From Escherichia phage REP4, in the sequence record OQ174503.1: a DNA stretch of 64,000 bases; one strand, written 5' to 3'. The notes under the pieces are model-generated. The model searched no databases. It saw only the letters and a program-made list of their open reading frames with translations, and was not told the DNA's origin. Shown here in pieces: positions 4,917 to 27,386 of the stretch (position 1 is the stretch's first letter; each line of letters begins with the position of its first letter). Position numbers and translations under genes: made by a program.

Positions 4917-6730
4917 TGGTGTTTAACCCTATGCATGATTTCTTTATTTTTGCCAAGATTAAATCCGCGTTCGTTCGGATTTCCCAAATAACCACAAGTT
5001 CTTCTTATTGTGTTCATCTTTTTAGGATCAGTTTCTCCACAAATAGAACAAACAAATCCGTTTTCAGTAGGAGTCATTTCATGGGTACTTCCACACGTAA
5101 AACATTTATCTACTGGCATGTTAACACCAAAATAATCTAAATGTTGTGCAGCATAATCCCATACAGCCTCAAGACCTTTTAGGTTATTTTTCATATCAGG
5201 AAGTTCAACATAAGAAATGTGACCGCCTGTCGCAATGAAATGATATGGGGCTTCGCGAGAAATCTTTTCAAACGGAGTAATATTTTCTTCTACTGAAACG
5301 TGGAAACTGTTGGTGTACCAGCCTTTATCAGTAACATCCTTTACACTTCCATATTTTTCGGTATCAAGTTTACAGAAGCGATAGCACAGGTTTTCAGCAG
5401 GAGTAGAATACAAACTAAAAGCAAAACCAGTTCTTTCAGTCCACTGCTTAAGACGAGCATTCATTTTAGTTAAAATTTCTTGTCCAATATCACGACCGAC
5501 AAGAATATTCAATTCGTGAATACCAATGTATCCTAGGGACACTGAACTTCTACCGTTTTTAAATAACTCAATTATGTCGTCGTCAGGTTTAAGACGAACC
5601 CCGAATGCACCTTCTTGGTAAAGAATAGGAGCAACAGTCGCTTTAACTCCTTTTAAGGAACTAATTCTACACATCAAAGCTTCAAAACATAAATCCATTC
5701 GTTCATTGAACAATTCGGCAAATTTCTGTTCATTGAACTGTGTTCCAGTATAAGAATCTAACGCAATACGAGGAAGATTCAGTGTTACAACACCAAGATT
5801 ATTACGTCCATCAAGAATTTCATTACCAGTCGAATCTTTCCATACACTCAAGAAACTACGACAACCCATTGGAGAAACAGGAATAGATGAACCGGTGATA
5901 GCTTTATTGTTCTTAGCCGAAATGATGTCAGGATACATTCTTTTGCTTGCACACTCTAAAGCAAGCTGCTTAATATCATAGTTCGGATCGTCTTTATAAA
6001 GATTAACACCCTCTTCAACGAACATAACAAGCTTAGGGAAAATAGGAGTTATCCCATCACGACCAAGGCCTTTAATACGATTTTTCAGAATTGCTTTCTG
6101 AATCATTCGTTCAGTCCAGTCAGTTCCCGTACCAAATGTAATTGTTACAAAAGGCGTTTGTCCGTTTGAACTAAAGAGAGTATTTACTTCATATTCATAA
6201 GCTTGGAACGCATCGTATACGTCTTTTTCTGTTTTAGACTGGGCGTAATTCAACGCATCAGCGATTTGCCATTTTTCTGCATCCTCAATATGTTTTGCGT
6301 AGGTGCGTTTAACATAAGGAGAAAGGACTTTATCTACATTCGCAAAAGTCGTTCCGCCATATTGATGGGAAGCAACCTGCGCAGTAATTTGTGCCATAAT
6401 TGCAGTAGCAACGCCAATTGATTTAGGAGTTTCAATCTGTGCATTACCGAGCTTAAATCCGTTCTCAAGCATTCCTTTTAAATCTACTAAACAACAATTA
6501 GTAAATGGAAGAGCAGGAGAATAATCAATATCATGGAAATGGATAATTCCGCTTTCATGCGCTTTCATAATAAAAGACGGGACCATATTTTTGGCAATGT
6601 GTTTAGACACAATACCAGCCATAAGGTCCCGTTGAGTTGGAAAAACACGAGAATCTTTATTAGCATTCTCGTTTAAAAGGTCTTTATTAGTTTTATGAAT
6701 TAATCCTTCAATTTCTTTTTCAATTGTCAT
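4913..6730 (-). CDS. nrdD: anaerobic ribonucleoside-triphosphate reductase, uninterrupted
   Basis: 605 aa; C-terminal glycyl-radical motif RRTCGYLG and Zn-ribbon cysteines; contiguous ORF with no intron. Confidence 0.95.
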   Translation of the reverse strand: MTIEKEIEGLIHKTNKDLLNENANKDSRVFPTQRDLMAGIVSKHIAKNMVPSFIMKAHESGIIHFHDIDYSPALPFTNCCLVDLKGMLENGFKLGNAQIETPKSIGVATAIMAQITAQVASHQYGGTTFANVDKVLSPYVKRTYAKHIEDAEKWQIADALNYAQSKTEKDVYDAFQAYEYEVNTLFSSNGQTPFVTITFGTGTDWTERMIQKAILKNRIKGLGRDGITPIFPKLVMFVEEGVNLYKDDPNYDIKQLALECASKRMYPDIISAKNNKAITGSSIPVSPMGCRSFLSVWKDSTGNEILDGRNNLGVVTLNLPRIALDSYTGTQFNEQKFAELFNERMDLCFEALMCRISSLKGVKATVAPILYQEGAFGVRLKPDDDIIELFKNGRSSVSLGYIGIHELNILVGRDIGQEILTKMNARLKQWTERTGFAFSLYSTPAENLCYRFCKLDTEKYGSVKDVTDKGWYTNSFHVSVEENITPFEKISREAPYHFIATGGHISYVELPDMKNNLKGLEAVWDYAAQHLDYFGVNMPVDKCFTCGSTHEMTPTENGFVCSICGETDPKKMNTIRRTCGYLGNPNERGFNLGKNKEIMHRVKHQ

Positions 6731-8346: not shown

Positions 8347-8606
8347 TTAAAGTATTCACGCAATTGGTCAAATCCACCAATATGACTTCCGTCAGGAGCA
8401 AATACCTGAGGCATCGTCAATCCGATTTGAGTATCACGACCCAGTTTAGTCAGAAGCTCAGCGATTTTCTCATCATCAAAAACACCTTTTTCCGGCATAA
8501 TGTTGATAAATTCAAACGGCTGTTTCTTCACAGTCAAGAGACGTTTTGCATTATCGCAATACACACATTTGTGGATGTTGCTATCATAACCATATACTTT
8601 AAACAT
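8343..8606 (-). CDS. nrdC: T4 thioredoxin/glutaredoxin
   Basis: 87 aa, MFKVYGYDSNIHKCVYCDNAKRLL... with CVYC active site, matching T4 NrdC. Confidence 0.9.
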   Translation of the reverse strand: MFKVYGYDSNIHKCVYCDNAKRLLTVKKQPFEFINIMPEKGVFDDEKIAELLTKLGRDTQIGLTMPQVFAPDGSHIGGFDQLREYFK

Positions 8607-8607
8607 A

Positions 8608-8865
8608 TTATTCCTTAATTCCTAGTACTTGTTTAAAAGTCTCGTCATAATCAAGACTTTGGCCCGTTTGTTCTTTATGTTTGTATATAATATCACTTAC
8701 TTCTGATAGCATATTTTTATATGAACGAGTTAAAGCAGATTTAAGCACGCTGTATCTATCAGGAAATTTACCATGTTCATTATAATAAGCTATTGCTAAT
8801 TCACGGACTGCTTTTTCAGCAATCTCCATATATTCTTTACGCTTTTTCATTTTCTTCTCGGTCAA
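8608..8865 (-). CDS. hypothetical protein (nrdC.1 position)
   Basis: 85-aa ORF. Confidence 0.5.
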
Positions 8866-9154
8866 ATCGATGTTTACAATGACGACATTTATAACGAAGA
8901 TTACTAGTCTGCCAATGAACTAATTGTACCTGTTCAGTACCACATTTTGGGCAGTTCGGAACATTCTTAGAAGCCCTTTCGCGGCGTTCAACCATAGCCA
9001 TAATAGCATCCCAGGCTGGAGGTTTAAAATCTAAATCGTCACAACCATGAATCTTTCCACGCATTTCTAAATCGTCTTCTTCACCATCCATAATAATTTT
9101 AATTAGACTGGAATTACTTGAAGCTGCAATATCTTCTAATAAGCGCTTTTTCAT
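8837..9154 (-). CDS. zinc-ribbon protein (nrdC.2 position)
   Basis: 105 aa with CPKC...CRHC four-cysteine motif. Confidence 0.5.
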
Positions 9155-20190: not shown

Positions 20191-20772
20191 CTAACCGAGC
20201 TTTTTAGTTAATTCATTCCAATGTTTTCTACACAAAGAAACATAAATTTCATCACCAATACAGATTTGATTACCTTCTTTAACTGGTGTTCCATCTTCCA
20301 TTAATCGAGCTGTCATAATCGCTTTTTTACCGCAATGACAAACTGCCTTTAGTTCAATAAGTTTATCTGCAATCGCCAAAAGTTCTTTAGAACCTTCAAA
20401 TAATTTTCCAGCGAAATCAGTCCTTAGACCATAAGCCATAACAGGAACATTATATGTATCGACAATTCGGCTTAATTGATGTACCTGTTCAGTTTTTAAA
20501 AACTGAGCTTCATCTACAAATACACAATGAATATCTTTTTGTGCTTCAGCCCATTTATAGAACTCAAAAATATCCATATCATCCGTAATAATATTCGCTT
20601 CCTGCTTAATTCCAATGCGAGAAACGACTTCACAGACAGAATCACGAGTATCAATAGCAGGCTTAAGAACTAATACACCCATTCCGCGTTCTTTATAATT
20701 ATGCGCAGCAGTCAAAAGAGAAGCAGATTTTCCAGCATTCATTGCTGCATAAGTAAAAATTAAACTCGCCAT
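20191..20772 (-). CDS. tk: thymidine kinase
   Basis: 193 aa; P-loop NAGKSASLL and C-terminal Zn-binding cysteines; matches T4 Tk length. Confidence 0.9.
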   Translation of the reverse strand: MASLIFTYAAMNAGKSASLLTAAHNYKERGMGVLVLKPAIDTRDSVCEVVSRIGIKQEANIITDDMDIFEFYKWAEAQKDIHCVFVDEAQFLKTEQVHQLSRIVDTYNVPVMAYGLRTDFAGKLFEGSKELLAIADKLIELKAVCHCGKKAIMTARLMEDGTPVKEGNQICIGDEIYVSLCRKHWNELTKKLG

Positions 20773-20781
20773 ATCACCTTC

Positions 20782-20967
20782 TTAAAGCGTATTCACATAA
20801 GCTATTAATTCGTTTTCTTTCTTATCAAACCGGTCAGCAAATTCTTCCTGTTGTTCGGGAGATAGCGGGCCGTATTCATCATAAAAGGTGTTTGCTTCTA
20901 TATGCTCATCTAGAAGTTCATGGATAAGCTCAAACAATTTATCTTTTTGTTCTTTACTCAGACTCAT
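20782..20967 (-). CDS. hypothetical acidic protein
   Basis: 61-aa ORF. Confidence 0.45.
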   Translation of the reverse strand: MSLSKEQKDKLFELIHELLDEHIEANTFYDEYGPLSPEQQEEFADRFDKKENELIAYVNTL

Positions 20968-21137
20968 ATATTAATTTCCAGAAGTTTTAAAATAATTCGC
21001 TTTTGCTTAAATATTTCCATAGTTAAATGATCAGTATCTTTTTGACCAATTCCGATGGCAAAACCTTTATTAACAGCGAGTTCAATTAAATTATCAAGCT
21101 CACGTAACACTTCATATTGTAACTCAGAACTATTCAT
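20964..21137 (-). CDS. hypothetical small protein (57 aa, not in ORF track)
   Basis: ATGA overlap with the upstream gene; reads MNSSELQYEVLRELDNLIELAVNKGF... Confidence 0.35.
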   Translation of the reverse strand: MNSSELQYEVLRELDNLIELAVNKGFAIGIGQKDTDHLTMEIFKQKRIILKLLEINI

Positions 21138-21361
21138 TTTGGTTTACCTTCTTTAACAAAATCGGGATAAGGATAAAATCCTGAATAAAATCCTTCACCT
21201 TTATGATTAATGCATCCTTTATTAGAGCAATAGCACCAATAATCGAAATCACAAGCCATTTCATCATTGCATAAAGCAAAAACAACTGGCCATTTACACT
21301 TTTCACAATGTGCATTTTTAAGAATGCTAGTTTGGCTCATAACCGTGTAACCTTTAAGCAA
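21134..21361 (-). CDS. cysteine-rich small protein (putative Zn-binding)
   Basis: 75 aa with nine Cys including CEKC and CxC pairs. Confidence 0.45.
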   Translation of the reverse strand: MLKGYTVMSQTSILKNAHCEKCKWPVVFALCNDEMACDFDYWCYCSNKGCINHKGEGFYSGFYPYPDFVKEGKPK

Positions 21362-21549
21362 TATTCTTCTACATGCTGTTTACGACCTTTCTTATCAATA
21401 AAGGTATATTCAACGAATGTTCCAATATAGTCTTTATCTACATCATGTGGACTATTAATTGGGCATTTAGTACGGCAAATGCGTTCCCATTGACGAATAA
21501 TTTCCACTTTGTTTTTAGGATCAAACGGATGCGGGTAATGTGCTTTCAT
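21337..21549 (-). CDS. hypothetical protein
   Basis: 70-aa ORF. Confidence 0.4.
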   Translation of the reverse strand: MKAHYPHPFDPKNKVEIIRQWERICRTKCPINSPHDVDKDYIGTFVEYTFIDKKGRKQHVEEYCLKVTRL

Positions 21550-22000
21550 AATCCACCACTATTAAATCAATATCAGGAGTAAACATGTCGATTAATTTAG
21601 AAACCTTATCCCAATCGCCGCCAGCAATACCGCAACCTATGCGTGGAATATAAATTACTGGTTTAAACAAAAGGGTCTCTGCCTGTAGATTTAATTCTAT
21701 CATGCAGTTTACTAAAGCACCATAATCAAGATTAGGACCCGGTTCGTATTGCGTATAAAGGTTATAGCATATACCAAATCCTGTAGGACTGTGTTTAAAA
21801 ACAATAGACATATCGCCTAATTTATCACGAGAACCGTACTCGGTAGTGGTTTTATCTATTTCTAAAATTTTGGGATAGGCTTTTGCTAATTGACCTGCTA
21901 CGCCAGAGCCCATTGTGTGGAAGCAATTGCACCCGTGCGCAATAATATTACCTTGAAGAAATAGGGCGACAATATCGCCCTTGATATATTTTACAATCAT
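21521..22000 (-). CDS. macro-domain protein (putative ADP-ribose binding/processing)
   Basis: 159 aa; N-terminal GDI...QGNIIAHGCNCFHTMGSGVAGQLAKA and later IPRIGCGIAGG resemble macro-domain motifs (GDIT / NAAN / GGGV / G-x-G-G). Confidence 0.55.
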   Translation of the reverse strand: MIVKYIKGDIVALFLQGNIIAHGCNCFHTMGSGVAGQLAKAYPKILEIDKTTTEYGSRDKLGDMSIVFKHSPTGFGICYNLYTQYEPGPNLDYGALVNCMIELNLQAETLLFKPVIYIPRIGCGIAGGDWDKVSKLIDMFTPDIDLIVVDYESTLPASV

Positions 22001-22338
22001 CTAGTACTCAATCCTCGATTATAAGAATCTACCAAACGGTCAACCATTGAATGACAAGCGGCTTTATCTTTCTCCTCCGCAACTGAACATTCTAAGGTAT
22101 TCCACTTTTTAGCATATCGTTTTAATAAAGTATCATTTTTGTATCTGCTTGATTTATCTCTTTCTCCGTCTTTATATGCATATATTAATTTCTGCGCAAA
22201 TTCAGCTTGGCATGCTTTATTTTTCCCGCAATAATCCGCGGCAGTACGGTTTACATACTCTCTAATTTCAGTATATGATGTATTTGCTAACGCAGAAAAT
22301 GAAATTAATCCTATACATAAAACCAAAATTTTAGTCAT
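21997..22338 (-). CDS. small secreted/periplasmic protein
   Basis: 113 aa with N-terminal signal peptide (MTKILVLCIGLISFSALA) and four Cys. Confidence 0.5.
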   Translation of the reverse strand: MTKILVLCIGLISFSALANTSYTEIREYVNRTAADYCGKNKACQAEFAQKLIYAYKDGERDKSSRYKNDTLLKRYAKKWNTLECSVAEEKDKAACHSMVDRLVDSYNRGLSTR

Positions 22339-22876
22339 TTACTATTTCCAAAAGTTTATTATTTTTAAGGTAGTTAGCCTTTTCTAGGACTTCAGAAGCA
22401 TATTTAGAACCTGCTTTAACATTCCATCCCGAATTATAAGAGGATATTGCCTTTCTTATATCACCCTTATGTATATTTAACCAATAAGAAAGTTCAATGT
22501 ACGCCCAGGAAGCTGAATTGGACCGTTTATTCAACATTCTTTTTATTTCGGCATCGGTCATATTATAACCAAGTTCCTTAATTCTTGCTCGCATGGTCGG
22601 CAAATAATTTTGGAACATTCCGTAGGCATGATGCTTTGGTTTAGATTTTAAATTAACTCCGGCAGAGCTTTCTTGCCATAAAATAGCAGCCATTATATGA
22701 CCTAATCCACTCTTGTGGATATTTTTGTGTGTTTTATATTTTCCATCCTTAGAAAATTGTTCCCCGAATTGATACGCGTAACGCATGTTATCGAGTTGGA
22801 CATTACTGAAAGTATGCTCGGAGCTATGTGCCATCATAGAAATGGCCAATAGACCAGCGAGTAGTGCTTTTCTCAT
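22331..22876 (-). CDS. periplasmic lytic transglycosylase-like protein (SLT domain)
   Basis: 181 aa; signal peptide then SLT-type motifs (LWQESS, GMFQ, SYNSGW). Confidence 0.6.
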   Translation of the reverse strand: MRKALLAGLLAISMMAHSSEHTFSNVQLDNMRYAYQFGEQFSKDGKYKTHKNIHKSGLGHIMAAILWQESSAGVNLKSKPKHHAYGMFQNYLPTMRARIKELGYNMTDAEIKRMLNKRSNSASWAYIELSYWLNIHKGDIRKAISSYNSGWNVKAGSKYASEVLEKANYLKNNKLLEIVND

Positions 22877-22883
22877 GCTTACC

Positions 22884-23345
22884 TCATTGAGTTTTAATTA
22901 CTGCTTTAGAAGCCTTTCCTGGTAAACGACGACTGTTGATAATTGCCATCCTGCATTGAAGCGACGGGTCTTTGAACTTCGCATTAGGTTTACAAACTGT
23001 AAATCCAAGCCAAAGATTTCCATCGGTGATTTCTAAACGCCCAGGACGATATTCAACCCCATCAATAAAATCCTCGTCAATGTCAGGACGCGGAGGCATA
23101 CTTAGGAATTCATTAACTTCTAAAACATGGTCTTTTATTTTATGGAATAATTCAAAAACATATGTCTCATCAATCTCCCGTTGAATTGCGCGATCAAGAA
23201 GATGCTGAGAATATTTTAGATGAAACGATGAGACCCCTGCTGCTTTTGATGCCTCACGAATCTCATTGTTAATTTGACGAAACTCCGACTCAAAGTGACG
23301 ACGGAGCTTATTTCGACGGATAAAAACTTCTGTGTTGATAGTCAT
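22884..23345 (-). CDS. regB: RegB site-specific endoribonuclease
   Basis: 153 aa matching T4 RegB in length; early promoter immediately upstream. Confidence 0.8.
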   Translation of the reverse strand: MTINTEVFIRRNKLRRHFESEFRQINNEIREASKAAGVSSFHLKYSQHLLDRAIQREIDETYVFELFHKIKDHVLEVNEFLSMPPRPDIDEDFIDGVEYRPGRLEITDGNLWLGFTVCKPNAKFKDPSLQCRMAIINSRRLPGKASKAVIKTQ

Positions 23346-23372
23346 GTTATTCTCCTCTTAACTGATAGAAAA

Positions 23373-23401
23373 ATTATACCACAGTCAAGAGGAAAAGTAA
23401 A
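23373..23401 (-). promoter_or_regulatory. sigma70-type early promoter (-35 TTTACT, 17 bp, TG-extended -10 TATAAT)
   Basis: Consensus hexamers upstream of regB. Confidence 0.55.
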
Positions 23402-23404
23402 CAG

Positions 23405-23725
23405 TTATTCTTTAAATCTAATCAATTTATTCATAGACTTTGAAACTTCTGCACGAACCTCATGTAGGTTTTTAAGCTGTTCAAGACGCTGCTCATAGTA
23501 AGCAATTTCATCTTCTTCGAGACAGTCCTGTGAATCTTCTTTAAGATAACGTGCATAGTCCTGGAAAGCTTTACGGACTACTTCCTGGAAGTCATCAAGA
23601 CTTTGAATTTTCTTAGGAGCAACAGATACACGACGAGGGGCAGTATAATACTCATAACCAAACCCTGCGCTTAATTGAGCCATTAATATTTTTCCTCTGG
23701 TTGAAACACAGCACGACAAGCCCAC
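23405..23725 (-). CDS. hypothetical protein (vs.3 position)
   Basis: 106-aa ORF. Confidence 0.5.
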
Positions 23726-23985
23726 ATACTAGCTTCTTTGAGTTTCGTTTTAGCAATAGTTAACTGATCGATGCTTTCAGCATAATTCTTCGCGAATTCA
23801 TAGTCTTCACAATTATTTAGCACTTCCCAGAATTCGTCGTATAAAGCATCAAAGATAAGTCCTAAACGAACTTCAGCGTCTTTGATTGCATTCACTTTAC
23901 CGATTTTCTCTTCAGTATGGGGCTTATAACCTTTAATGTCTTCAATCATATTTGACTTCCTCACCAGTACATAAATCATATTCAA
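23683..23985 (-). CDS. hypothetical protein (vs.4 position; candidate Acb2-like cyclic-nucleotide sponge)
   Basis: About 90-100 aa helical protein at the position of T4 vs.4; assignment is by synteny only. Confidence 0.35.
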
Positions 23986-24163
23986 CTAAACGAATAGGTT
24001 CATGAATGCCATATCCCTGAACGGAAATTTCTGTCGTAGGATAAATTCCACTAATATCACCCATGTTCCATGCTTCATTAAATTGCTGTTCGCCTGAATT
24101 ACTAAACCATTCGGCGAAAGCATTTAGCACATCTTCAGAACCTTCAATAATTATCTTTGCCAT
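23942..24163 (-). CDS. hypothetical protein
   Basis: 73-aa ORF. Confidence 0.45.
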   Translation of the reverse strand: MAKIIIEGSEDVLNAFAEWFSNSGEQQFNEAWNMGDISGIYPTTEISVQGYGIHEPIRLVEYDLCTGEEVKYD

Positions 24164-24525
24164 TACAGGCTCTCAGTAAAGGTACGAGCGATAACGTCGC
24201 GCTGCTGTTCCGGAGTCAGAGAGTTAAAGCGAACTGCATAACCGGATACACGGATGGTCAGCTGCGGATATTTTTCCGGATGCTTAACTGCATCTTCCAG
24301 AGTTTCACGACGCAGAACGTTAACGTTCAGGTGTTGACCACCCTCGATTTTAACTGTAGGTTGTGTTTCAATTTCAATTTCACGGGCATGCAAACCATAG
24401 AAAATTTCTGGGTCTACAAAAGAGTCCTCTTTAAAAGTTTTAGAGACAATAATTCGTGCTTGAATACCATCTTCAAAATAAATAGTACCTTTATGCGTGC
24501 CTTCAAGAATTTGATATGCTTTCAT
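24163..24525 (-). CDS. autonomous glycyl-radical cofactor (GrcA/YfiD-like)
   Basis: 120 aa; C-terminal about 60 aa carry the glycyl-radical motif [25 protein letters not shown] and look identical to E. coli GrcA as I recall it. Confidence 0.75.
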
Positions 24526-24532
24526 ATAAACC

Positions 24533-24862
24533 TCAATTAGAAAATAAATTTATCCAAGATTGTTCTTTAATTAAAAATGGCTCAGAATCATATGCCATTA
24601 AACTCTGTGTGATTAGTCCTTTAAAAGGCCCATCAATAAATTCCATAGTAAAATATGGAATTTTATTCATTAGCCGTGCATTAGGAGCCGTGCACAAAAC
24701 TCTGCATCCTTTGAATACGCCTTTTTGTAATTTGTATTGCTTAGGATAAAATTCGCTCAAAATGTTATTTTTTGCTAAAATTTCAAAATGATTCACCAAT
24801 TTATTTTTAATAGTTTTTGGCGAAAAATAGAGATATTCGAAAAGCTGAGTGTCTGTCATCAT
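24533..24862 (-). CDS. hypothetical protein
   Basis: Start refined to [10 protein letters not shown]..., overlapping the stop of the upstream gene. Confidence 0.45.
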
Positions 24863-25398
24863 TGCATTCCGATTACGAAAAACTGTGGACGAGTAATACC
24901 ACCAATGCAACATTTAATATTACAGCAGCAGTGTACAGTGTCAATATGGACACTATAAATCTTATCCATATCAGGAGATTTGACAGGCTCATCAATTATA
25001 TATAAAATTCGCGAAAGCTTTAAACCTCTGAACTTGCTTCCTTTATTACCGATAAAACTGCGCACAGAATCAGTAAATAAACGAAAACGTATATCATCAT
25101 TAGAATAACGCGAAAATTCCTTTTTAATGTTATTTGCAGAAATTTTAGCGTAAGCTGAAGTATTAGAAAGAACAATAACTGTTCCGCCATCATACAACCA
25201 ATTAGCAGCAAAGTTAGTCACAGCAATTGATTTACCGGATTGACGTCCACCGTCTAGTCGAAGTGTGCAATACTGTTTAAGTAATTCTTCAAATGGCGGG
25301 ATATATTCGTTTTTACAAATTTCTTCTACTCTAGCATCAGAATGGTGTGTAAAAGCATTCATCAGGGATAGATAAGGACCAGTTAAAAATGTTCTCAT
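24859..25398 (-). CDS. P-loop NTPase-like protein
   Basis: 179 aa; Walker A-like GGRQSGKS and Walker B-like ILYIIDE. Confidence 0.45.
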   Translation of the reverse strand: MRTFLTGPYLSLMNAFTHHSDARVEEICKNEYIPPFEELLKQYCTLRLDGGRQSGKSIAVTNFAANWLYDGGTVIVLSNTSAYAKISANNIKKEFSRYSNDDIRFRLFTDSVRSFIGNKGSKFRGLKLSRILYIIDEPVKSPDMDKIYSVHIDTVHCCCNIKCCIGGITRPQFFVIGMQ

Positions 25399-25538
25399 TT
25401 CTTCTCTCTAAATTTGGGCCATTCCGTGGCGCATGAATTGTCCATTTCTGTATTTACCCATTACCGCACTTGGGCTCGACCTTATTACAGGTTGGCGGGA
25501 ATCCCTCACAGAATCATGAGGTCCAGGTTGTTCCCATA

Positions 25539-26012
25539 TTATTTGAACGATTTAACGTACTGAATAGAACCTTTACTATTCACGAAAGCGATTTTACCAT
25601 TTTTATTATACATGGTAGCAGTACGCTGATAGCCATAAGTTTGCTTACCAGATTGATAACCAACTAATGCAAAATTATCTTCACCCATTTTATTCTGTTT
25701 AGCGCGAATGCGTTCATGACCATGTGCCATAAGAACCTTAGCATCACCAGTTGCAATGGATCGACGAGTTTTTTCATCTTCAACTGTATTAACAAAGTCG
25801 TCAAATGAATCAAATTTAGCATGAGATTTATTATACAGTTTTCCATCTACTGCATAATTATATCCCTGTACATCCATCTCAACTTCTGTACCATCATCCA
25901 ATACAGCAGTGATTTTCTGTCCTTTTTTAAATTTCAAAAGATCAGTAAAAGATTCAGCAATAATTTGAGAATTAATAGTTGCTTCAGTAATAAATTCTTG
26001 ATATGTTTTCAT
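25539..26012 (-). CDS. internal-protein-like head protein with N-terminal capsid-targeting sequence
   Basis: 157 aa beginning MKTYQEFITEA, the conserved internal-protein leader shared with ipI. Confidence 0.6.
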   Translation of the reverse strand: MKTYQEFITEATINSQIIAESFTDLLKFKKGQKITAVLDDGTEVEMDVQGYNYAVDGKLYNKSHAKFDSFDDFVNTVEDEKTRRSIATGDAKVLMAHGHERIRAKQNKMGEDNFALVGYQSGKQTYGYQRTATMYNKNGKIAFVNSKGSIQYVKSFK

Positions 26013-26028
26013 GTGTATCCTTTAATTT

Positions 26029-26346
26029 TTATTCTTTAGGGAAGTTTTTAGAATATGCATCATAAAGCTTATTTCCAATACGGCGGAAAACTCTAGCCGC
26101 AAAACGATTTTCTGGGTTTTTAATCATGATTTGCATCATATAAGTACCCGCGTCAGAAAGAGCTTCTTCATAGTACCCGTTAATTTCTTTAAGAGTCCTA
26201 CGTTTACCACCAGGACCATCAACAGTGATTTTCCATTTACCTGTAGAAGTGCGACTTGGCGGCTCAACTTGTTCAATCCAGATATAACCGCCTTCTACAC
26301 GTTGTCCTTGGGCAGATTCTGCAATAAATTCTTTAAACGTTTTCAT
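26029..26346 (-). CDS. internal-protein-like head protein with capsid-targeting sequence
   Basis: 105 aa beginning MKTFKEFIAES; early promoter upstream. Confidence 0.6.
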   Translation of the reverse strand: MKTFKEFIAESAQGQRVEGGYIWIEQVEPPSRTSTGKWKITVDGPGGKRRTLKEINGYYEEALSDAGTYMMQIMIKNPENRFAARVFRRIGNKLYDAYSKNFPKE

Positions 26347-26383
26347 ATGGTTCCTTTAAATATTTTAATTAGTAACTATGAAT

Positions 26384-26412
26384 ATACTATCACAGTTCTA
26401 GGAGAAAGTAAA
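26384..26412 (-). promoter_or_regulatory. sigma70-type early promoter (-35 TTTACT, 17 bp, -10 TAGTAT)
   Basis: Promoter-family member at the 3' end of e, driving the internal-protein genes. Confidence 0.5.
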
Positions 26413-26417
26413 CAACT

Positions 26418-27386
<969 letters not shown>

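Follow-up and report, generated by a model that had tools for sequence, protein, structure and literature searches.

Which protein is encoded by the small open reading frame between vs and tk.3 of Escherichia phage REP4, and what might it do in the infected cell? The window analysed here is a stretch of 64,000 nucleotides from this phage (OQ174503.1), and its source is a Tequatrovirus (T4-like). The original prediction placed a 159-aa product at 21521-22000, within an accessory block running from tk to regB. Both points hold: an ATG-to-TGA ORF is present on the minus strand, and tk, vs, vs.1 and regB all lie on that same strand, 96-99% identical to T4. The genes concerned are:

20191..20772, minus strand: tk, 99% identity to T4
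21521..22000, minus strand: tk.4 / adfM, stand-alone macrodomain protein of 159 aa, an ATG-to-TGA ORF
21997..22338, minus strand: vs, 96.5% identity to T4
22331..22876, minus strand: vs.1, 99% identity to T4
22884..23345, minus strand: regB, 99% identity to T4

Many Tequatrovirus genomes, KFS-EC3, PP01, Shigella Sf21 and Yersinia ZN18 among them, match the 2.4 kb surrounding the ORF at 98-98.7% identity, and the PP01 record annotates the same gene as tk.4. The minus strand of the T4 reference carries tk, tk.1, tk.2, tk.3, tk.4, vs, vs.1 and regB, with tk.4 annotated as 'phosphatase; contains A1pp phosphatase motif'. Order and strand are the same in the window, where tk.3 is 91% identical to its T4 counterpart. 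As the ORF lies between vs and tk.3, the syntenic slot that the window has in common with T4, it is tk.4.

The gene overlaps its neighbors on both sides, and a promoter scan returned one site just upstream of regB:

21997..22000, minus strand: ATGA overlap, read from the sequence, of the vs stop codon TGA (21997..21999) and the tk.4 start codon ATG (21998..22000)
23373..23401, minus strand: promoter-like site TTTACT-17-TATAAT with TG

At the other end of the gene, tk.3 starts 29 nt ahead of the tk.4 stop codon. The vs/tk.4 and tk.4/tk.3 overlaps therefore define a tightly packed, co-directional gene string. A purine-rich GAGGATTGAG can be read 7-16 nt upstream of the tk.4 start which, together with the ATGA overlap, suggests translational coupling within the regB-vs.1-vs-tk.4-tk.3 string. 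The site upstream of regB might serve the co-directional genes from regB to tk.4 as an early promoter, but is a weak lead. Promoter-like sites in the region did not exceed chance (17 observed, 19.0 by shuffling) and terminator-like sites were at the chance level (4 observed, 3.0 expected); no claim about transcription is therefore drawn from them. A strict search of the minus strand from 21500 to 25500 found no MotA box.

Sequence and fold searches identify the product as a macrodomain. The Pfam Macro profile (PF01661) matches residues 22-136 of Tk.4 at 31.9 bits (E=1.4e-7; curated gathering cut-off 22 bits), covering profile positions 2-117 of 118, and PHROG 335 matches with E=5e-72. In a large protein collection, 786 homologues were found at E<=1e-3. 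By tblastn, 2855 of 50,697 phage records (about 5.6%) contain a homologue; these extend across Straboviridae, Felix O1-like, rV5-like and PAK_P1-like phages, and also occur in Vibrio, Bacillus and Streptomyces phages. The ORF can thus be taken to lie far beyond chance expectation. An alignment-based AF2 model (pLDDT 94) was used for structural comparison, a single-sequence AlphaFold model (pLDDT 34.4) having been discarded, and Tk.4 has the three-layer α/β/α macro fold. The highest fold search values were those of BT1257 (2AFC; 18.1), the M. tuberculosis DarG macrodomain (5M3I; 17.4), yeast Poa1p (17.3), human TARG1 (16.4) and Thermosipho DarTG (16.4), followed by coronavirus Mac1 and other macrodomains at 13.7 or less. 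Foldseek agrees with this ranking, with TARG1 and Poa1p among its top matches. A Tk.4 family profile compared with the PDB likewise recovered BT1257 (2.8e-19), TARG1 (5e-17), SCO6735 (7e-16), Poa1p (1.5e-14) and DarG (6e-12 and 2.7e-10). The closest neighbors in structure and sequence are members of the ALC1/TARG1-like class; since these closest profile and fold neighbors all belong to it, Tk.4 is a stand-alone macrodomain of that class. The original assignment to the macro-domain superfamily is thus borne out by profile and fold searches alike.

Database labels for tk.4 are heterogeneous: hypothetical protein, phosphatase, macro domain protein, Poa1p-like family protein and O-acetyl-ADP-ribose deacetylase. 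Some records (e.g. P0002) give a 130-aa product from Met30, i.e. one that lacks the AHGCNC active-site loop, which is probably a start-codon mis-call.

The macro motifs quoted in the original prediction are all present in the translation. Together with a further segment located from profile-to-PDB alignments, they are placed as follows:

21974..21979, minus strand: GD motif
21923..21940, minus strand: A21-H22-G23-C24-N25-C26, first active-site loop (AHGCNC), with H22, G23, N25 and C26 invariant
21896..21913, minus strand: M30-G31-S32-G33-V34-A35 (MGSGVA), glycine-rich loop typical of ADP-ribose-binding macrodomains
21737..21763, minus strand: N80-L-Y82-T83-Q84-Y-E-P-G88, with the Q84 codon at 21749..21751
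21611..21646, minus strand: P119-R-I-G122-C-G124-I-A-G-G-D-W130, phosphate-binding loop, PRIGCGIAGGDW

Fourteen residues do not vary across 89 homologues, whose identities reach down to 38%: H22, G23, N25, C26, G33, A35, D49, N80, Y82, Q84, P119, G122, G124 and W130. Sequence alignment maps H22, G23, N25, Q84, G122 and G124 onto SCO6735 His24, Val25, Asn27, Gln85, Gly126 and Gly128, N25 being also the counterpart of DarG N22; the positions that PMC9411070 names as His24, Val25, Asn27 and Lys34 served to check the SCO6735 numbering. In profile-to-PDB alignments Q84 pairs with Lys84, the catalytic lysine of TARG1, and with the Gln in the 'GQH' motif of BT1257, which corresponds to SCO6735 Gln85 when BT1257 is aligned to SCO6735. 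The equivalence of DarG Lys80 (T. aquaticus), TARG1 Lys84 and SCO6735 Gln85 has been published (PMC9411070). Elsewhere in the site, S32 occupies the slot of the DNA-positioning Lys34 of SCO6735 and is Ala in most Tk.4 homologues, A126 stands where TARG1 has its catalytic Asp125, and the loop after Q84 has 6 residues fewer than that of BT1257/SCO6735. Judged from these alignments, the Tk.4 family has a Gln-type active site like that of SCO6735, unlike the Lys-type sites of DarG and the PhiKZ protein AdfM. The family also has signatures of its own, HGCNC and NLYTQ, and the glycine-rich loops of the window protein, MGSG and IGCGIAGG, would bind ADP-ribose or a derivative.

The best-characterized comparison is with SCO6735 of Streptomyces coelicolor which, like BT1257 of Bacteroides, is a stand-alone Gln-type ALC1-like protein about 26-29% identical to Tk.4. 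Both take thymidine-linked ADP-ribose off DNA, SCO6735 faster than DarG or TARG1; the Q85A mutant of SCO6735 has no activity, N27S almost none, and G128E is substantially reduced (PMC9411070). The backbone of Val25 positions a water molecule, while Lys34 and Lys89 position the DNA (PMC9411070). Tk.4 shares with SCO6735 the Gln at the catalytic-Lys position, the conserved Asn and the GCG glycines. Unlike SCO6735 and BT1257, it is without the 'mobile loop' extension, 5-6 residues long, on which Lys89 sits, and unlike SCO6735 its family has Ser or Ala in place of Lys34. With both lysines absent, DNA binding must be arranged differently; full membership in the SCO6735/BT1257 subclass was rejected on account of the missing long mobile loop and two lysines. 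In its short loop after Gln84, Tk.4 instead resembles DarG and TARG1. Human TARG1 (OARD1) and yeast Poa1p have the ALC1-like class in common with Tk.4. Where TARG1, which also cleaves thymidine-ADP-ribose DNA (PMC9411070), has its Lys84/Asp125 dyad, Tk.4 has Gln84/Ala126. The activity described for Poa1p is that of an Appr1''p phosphatase; its residues H23 and S30, probed together with F152 in PDB 6LFS/6LFT/6LFU, align to H22 and T29 of Tk.4 in a pairwise alignment that leaves the middle of the protein unaligned. By analogy with SCO6735, Tk.4 is predicted to hydrolyze thymidine-ADP-ribose in ssDNA.

DarG is the best and sole significant family for both the window and T4 alleles in PADLOC and NCBIfam. 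The NCBIfam DarG model (NF048014) scores 28.2 bits, far under its cut-off of 250, over model positions 2-142 of 338, and the PADLOC DarG model is matched over positions 3-144 of 329. DarG (PDB 5M3I, 5M31/5M3E, 7OMU) has a catalytic Lys, K80, where Tk.4 has the invariant Gln84; its C-terminus adds a DarT-binding domain of about 180 aa and darT lies next to it, whereas Tk.4 has neither, its neighbors being vs and tk.3. With a score so far below the cut-off, and without the catalytic Lys, the C-terminal domain or a darT neighbor, Tk.4 was rejected as a DarG. A single look-up of a bacterial homologue (P0092, Pelagimonas, 40% identity) found no darT beside it, only unrelated housekeeping-type genes; in that one instance the homologue, alone among unrelated genes, more closely resembles the stand-alone SCO6735 than a toxin-antitoxin operon.

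Phage-encoded stand-alone macrodomains are also found beyond the Tk.4 family. Gp104 of the chimallivirus PhiKZ, independently named AdfM, is one that counters DarTG2, and it strips thymidine-ADP-ribose from oligonucleotides in vitro with a putative active site of N23/K78 (PMC13309987, Cell Rep 2026). It shares with Tk.4 the stand-alone architecture and the name. Their sequences, however, match at only 23 bits by BLASTP (about 23% identity), and PhiKZ AdfM is Lys-type, imported into the phage nucleus and expressed late, whereas Tk.4 is Gln-type. We therefore rejected the two as one family, their relationship being merely remote: PhiKZ AdfM is a different family of the same class. AdfB of ICP1 was dropped as a macrodomain precedent, as the article describing it gives a direct interaction with DarT and we found no statement about a macrodomain there (PMC11481870).

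An anti-DarTG2 role of tk.4 genes is already known for the T4 orthologue. DarT2 ADP-ribosylates thymidine in ssDNA, and T2 and T4 without adfN/adfA are still resistant to DarTG2, so that a further factor was predicted (PMC11825919). In a recent preprint, a HIDEN-SEQ transposon screen on a DarTG2 host returned T4 tk.4 as the single significant gene, a clean knockout of it rendered T4 DarTG2-sensitive, and the gene was named adfM, for anti-DarT factor Macrodomain (bioRxiv 10.1101/2025.11.20.689424). The authors noted that T4 Tk.4 resembles the DarG macrodomain of M. tuberculosis, and described enzymatic removal of ADP-ribose from DNA only as something that 'seems likely' (bioRxiv 10.1101/2025.11.20.689424). 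The plating of a deletion mutant on DarTG hosts, suggested in the original prediction, has thus already been published for T4, and its proposal of counter-defence against an ADP-ribosylating host toxin matches those genetics, albeit obtained with an allele 59% identical to that of the window. Our literature search found no published enzymology for any Tk.4. Proteomics has picked up the Tk.4 protein of T2, and T2 tk.4 mRNA was recovered on Hfq together with the host sRNA ArcZ (bioRxiv 10.64898/2026.06.19.733364); that report mislabels the gene as a 'putative thymidine kinase'.

How far can results for T4 be carried over to the window allele? The two Tk.4 proteins are 59% identical (E=6e-71) without gaps over 155 residues, all 14 family-invariant residues are common to both, and the window protein is 4 residues longer at its C-terminus. 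T2 Tk.4 (8424..8891 in record L005) is 100% identical to T4 Tk.4 (4923..5390 in record L001), and the DarTG2 data found on T-even phages therefore concern one allele. The phosphate loop is GCGIAGGD in the window, the family consensus, and GAGIGKGN in T4 and T2. Sliding identity and a codon alignment delimit the divergent segment:

21530..21962, minus strand: divergent allele cassette relative to T4/T2

Within the cassette, nucleotide identity to T4 is about 45-75%, against 95-100% on either side; the first 38 nt of the tk.4 ORF are identical to T4, and the cassette is essentially the rest of the ORF. At the protein level, identity is 85% over the first 48 residues, and the most divergent parts are residues 49-79 (39%) and 131-155 (24%). 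Between the window and T4, tk.4 has a dS of 1.81, a dN of 0.37 and a dN/dS of 0.21, against a dS of 0.11-0.12 in tk, vs.1 and regB. With dS at saturation and a dN/dS of 0.21, the window tk.4 is an old allele brought in by recombination and under purifying selection; rapid positive selection was rejected, on the same values, as the source of the low identity to T4. The allele is not confined to this phage, occurring at >=90% identity in 318 phage records by tblastn, and there are intermediate lineages at 62-82% identity. Taken together, the window allele presumably has the same anti-DarTG2 function as that of T4.

A perfect 8-bp GC-rich hairpin, AAGGGCGATATTGTCGCCCTT (21963..21981, minus strand), lies inside the N-terminal codons of tk.4, with about -13 kcal/mol as RNA. 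It is identical in T4 and sits where identity to T4 stops and the divergent cassette starts. The hairpin, flagged by a terminator scan whose yield was at the chance level, could be the mark of a recombination junction, or a coincidence.

Other loci in the window also vary relative to T4. A second cassette (20770..21350) lies between tk and tk.3; it has no tk.1, and its tk.2 is 54% identical to that of T4. The ORF list gives three frames here:

20782..20967, minus strand: ORF of the tk-tk.3 cassette
20964..21137, minus strand: ORF of the tk-tk.3 cassette
21134..21361, minus strand: ORF of the tk-tk.3 cassette

This cassette matches T2, its 57-aa and 75-aa ORFs being 98% identical to EcT2_00116 and EcT2_00117. 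Cysteines are abundant in the 75-aa product (CEKCKW...CNDEMACDFDYWCYCSNKGC), which suggests a small zinc-binding protein. T4 denV (endonuclease V) has no match anywhere within the window. From vs.8 to the lysozyme gene e, the region 25509..26912 is a variable internal-protein locus, with two ORFs that have internal-protein-like N-termini:

25539..26012: internal-protein-like ORF, 157 aa, MKTYQEFITE..., weak likeness to T4 ipII (31%)
26029..26346: internal-protein-like ORF, 105 aa, MKTFKEFIAE..., no resemblance to T4 ipII
26418..26912: e lysozyme gene

We consider it likely that the window Tk.4 removes thymidine-ADP-ribose made by DarT2 from phage ssDNA, through a water mechanism positioned by Gln84 and Asn25. 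Tk.4 would be made during infection as part of the regB-vs-tk.4 string. In a host carrying DarTG2, the toxin DarT2 ADP-ribosylates thymidines in phage ssDNA and so blocks replication. Most likely the ADP-ribose moiety is bound in the glycine-rich pocket of Tk.4 and the enzyme hydrolyzes the thymine-ribose bond, restoring replicable DNA. In this reaction the invariant Gln84, held by the invariant Asn25, would position the distal ribose, with the chemistry left to a water molecule instead of a catalytic lysine. It is the enzymatic step, de-ADP-ribosylation of DNA, that we infer here for Tk.4.

Protection from DarT2 may also be achieved by binding. Catalytically dead SCO6735 Q85A, DarG K80A and TARG1 K84A still inhibit DarT in vitro, SCO6735 most strongly (PMC9411070), so hydrolysis is not the sole possible protective route, and AdfB of ICP1 counters DarT via direct interaction (PMC11481870). 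Tk.4 might thus act mainly as a stoichiometric mimic of an antitoxin that binds DarT2, and not by hydrolyzing ADP-ribosylated DNA, and diversification of a toxin-contact surface could yield the pattern seen between the alleles, whose most divergent parts lie outside the catalytic motifs. We regard this as unlikely, however: Tk.4 is without the C-terminal DarT-binding domain of DarG, dN/dS gives no overall sign of positive selection, and the strict invariance of the active-site residues in the 89 homologues points to catalysis as the property under selection.

Two further readings retain a catalytic Tk.4 and change its substrate. The 'phosphatase' label would make it a Poa1p-like ADP-ribose-1''-phosphate phosphatase that clears a by-product of RNA 2'-phosphate removal. 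This label was carried over by homology from 'A1pp', the first name of the macro domain, and the Gln84/Asn25 pair fits the DNA-ADP-ribose hydrolase SCO6735. Moreover, the route that yields Appr1''p is not known to be active in T4 infection. Tk.4 may have weak side activity on Appr1''p, but as its main role this is very unlikely. It is similarly very unlikely that Tk.4 erases other ADP-ribose marks or signals, be they those of Alt/ModA/ModB, the mRNA ADP-ribosylation of CmdT, or NAD-derived Thoeris-like signals. The Alt and Mod enzymes of T4 modify arginine, and ALC1-like macrodomains are not known to cleave arginine-linked ADP-ribose. SCO6735 is inactive on 5'-phospho- and 2'-OH-linked nucleic-acid ADP-ribose in gel assays. 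T4, though carrying tk.4, is strongly restricted by CmdTAC (PMC11618068), so the CmdT mark is not neutralized by Tk.4. The original prediction had also raised Thoeris as a target, and regulation of T4's own ADP-ribosylation as a role. We found no evidence for either; the parts of the preprint searched contain no Thoeris phenotype for tk.4 (bioRxiv 10.1101/2025.11.20.689424). Removal of thymidine-ADP-ribose from phage DNA therefore remains our preferred reading of Tk.4.

A bolder extension of this reading, which we hold to be rather unlikely, is that the Tk.4 family comprises a third mechanistic type of thymidine-ADP-ribose DNA hydrolase, with alleles, anciently diverged and recombining as cassettes into near-identical T4-like backbones, that would differ in the DarT2 variants or other ADP-ribosylating toxins they neutralize. 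If true, this type would combine the Gln centre of SCO6735 with the short loop of DarG/TARG1, without the DNA-positioning lysines, and allele-specific neutralization would make the tk.4 allele a host-range determinant. As it stands, tk.4 is an ordinary feature of T4-like phages, and current understanding is not overturned. The annotation 'phosphatase' would be better replaced by 'macrodomain ADP-ribosylglycohydrolase, AdfM/Tk.4 family'. Overall, these data move a T4 accessory gene that was long unannotated, often listed as 'hypothetical protein' or 'phosphatase', into the set of genes with which phages counter the ADP-ribosylation of DNA by DarTG2.
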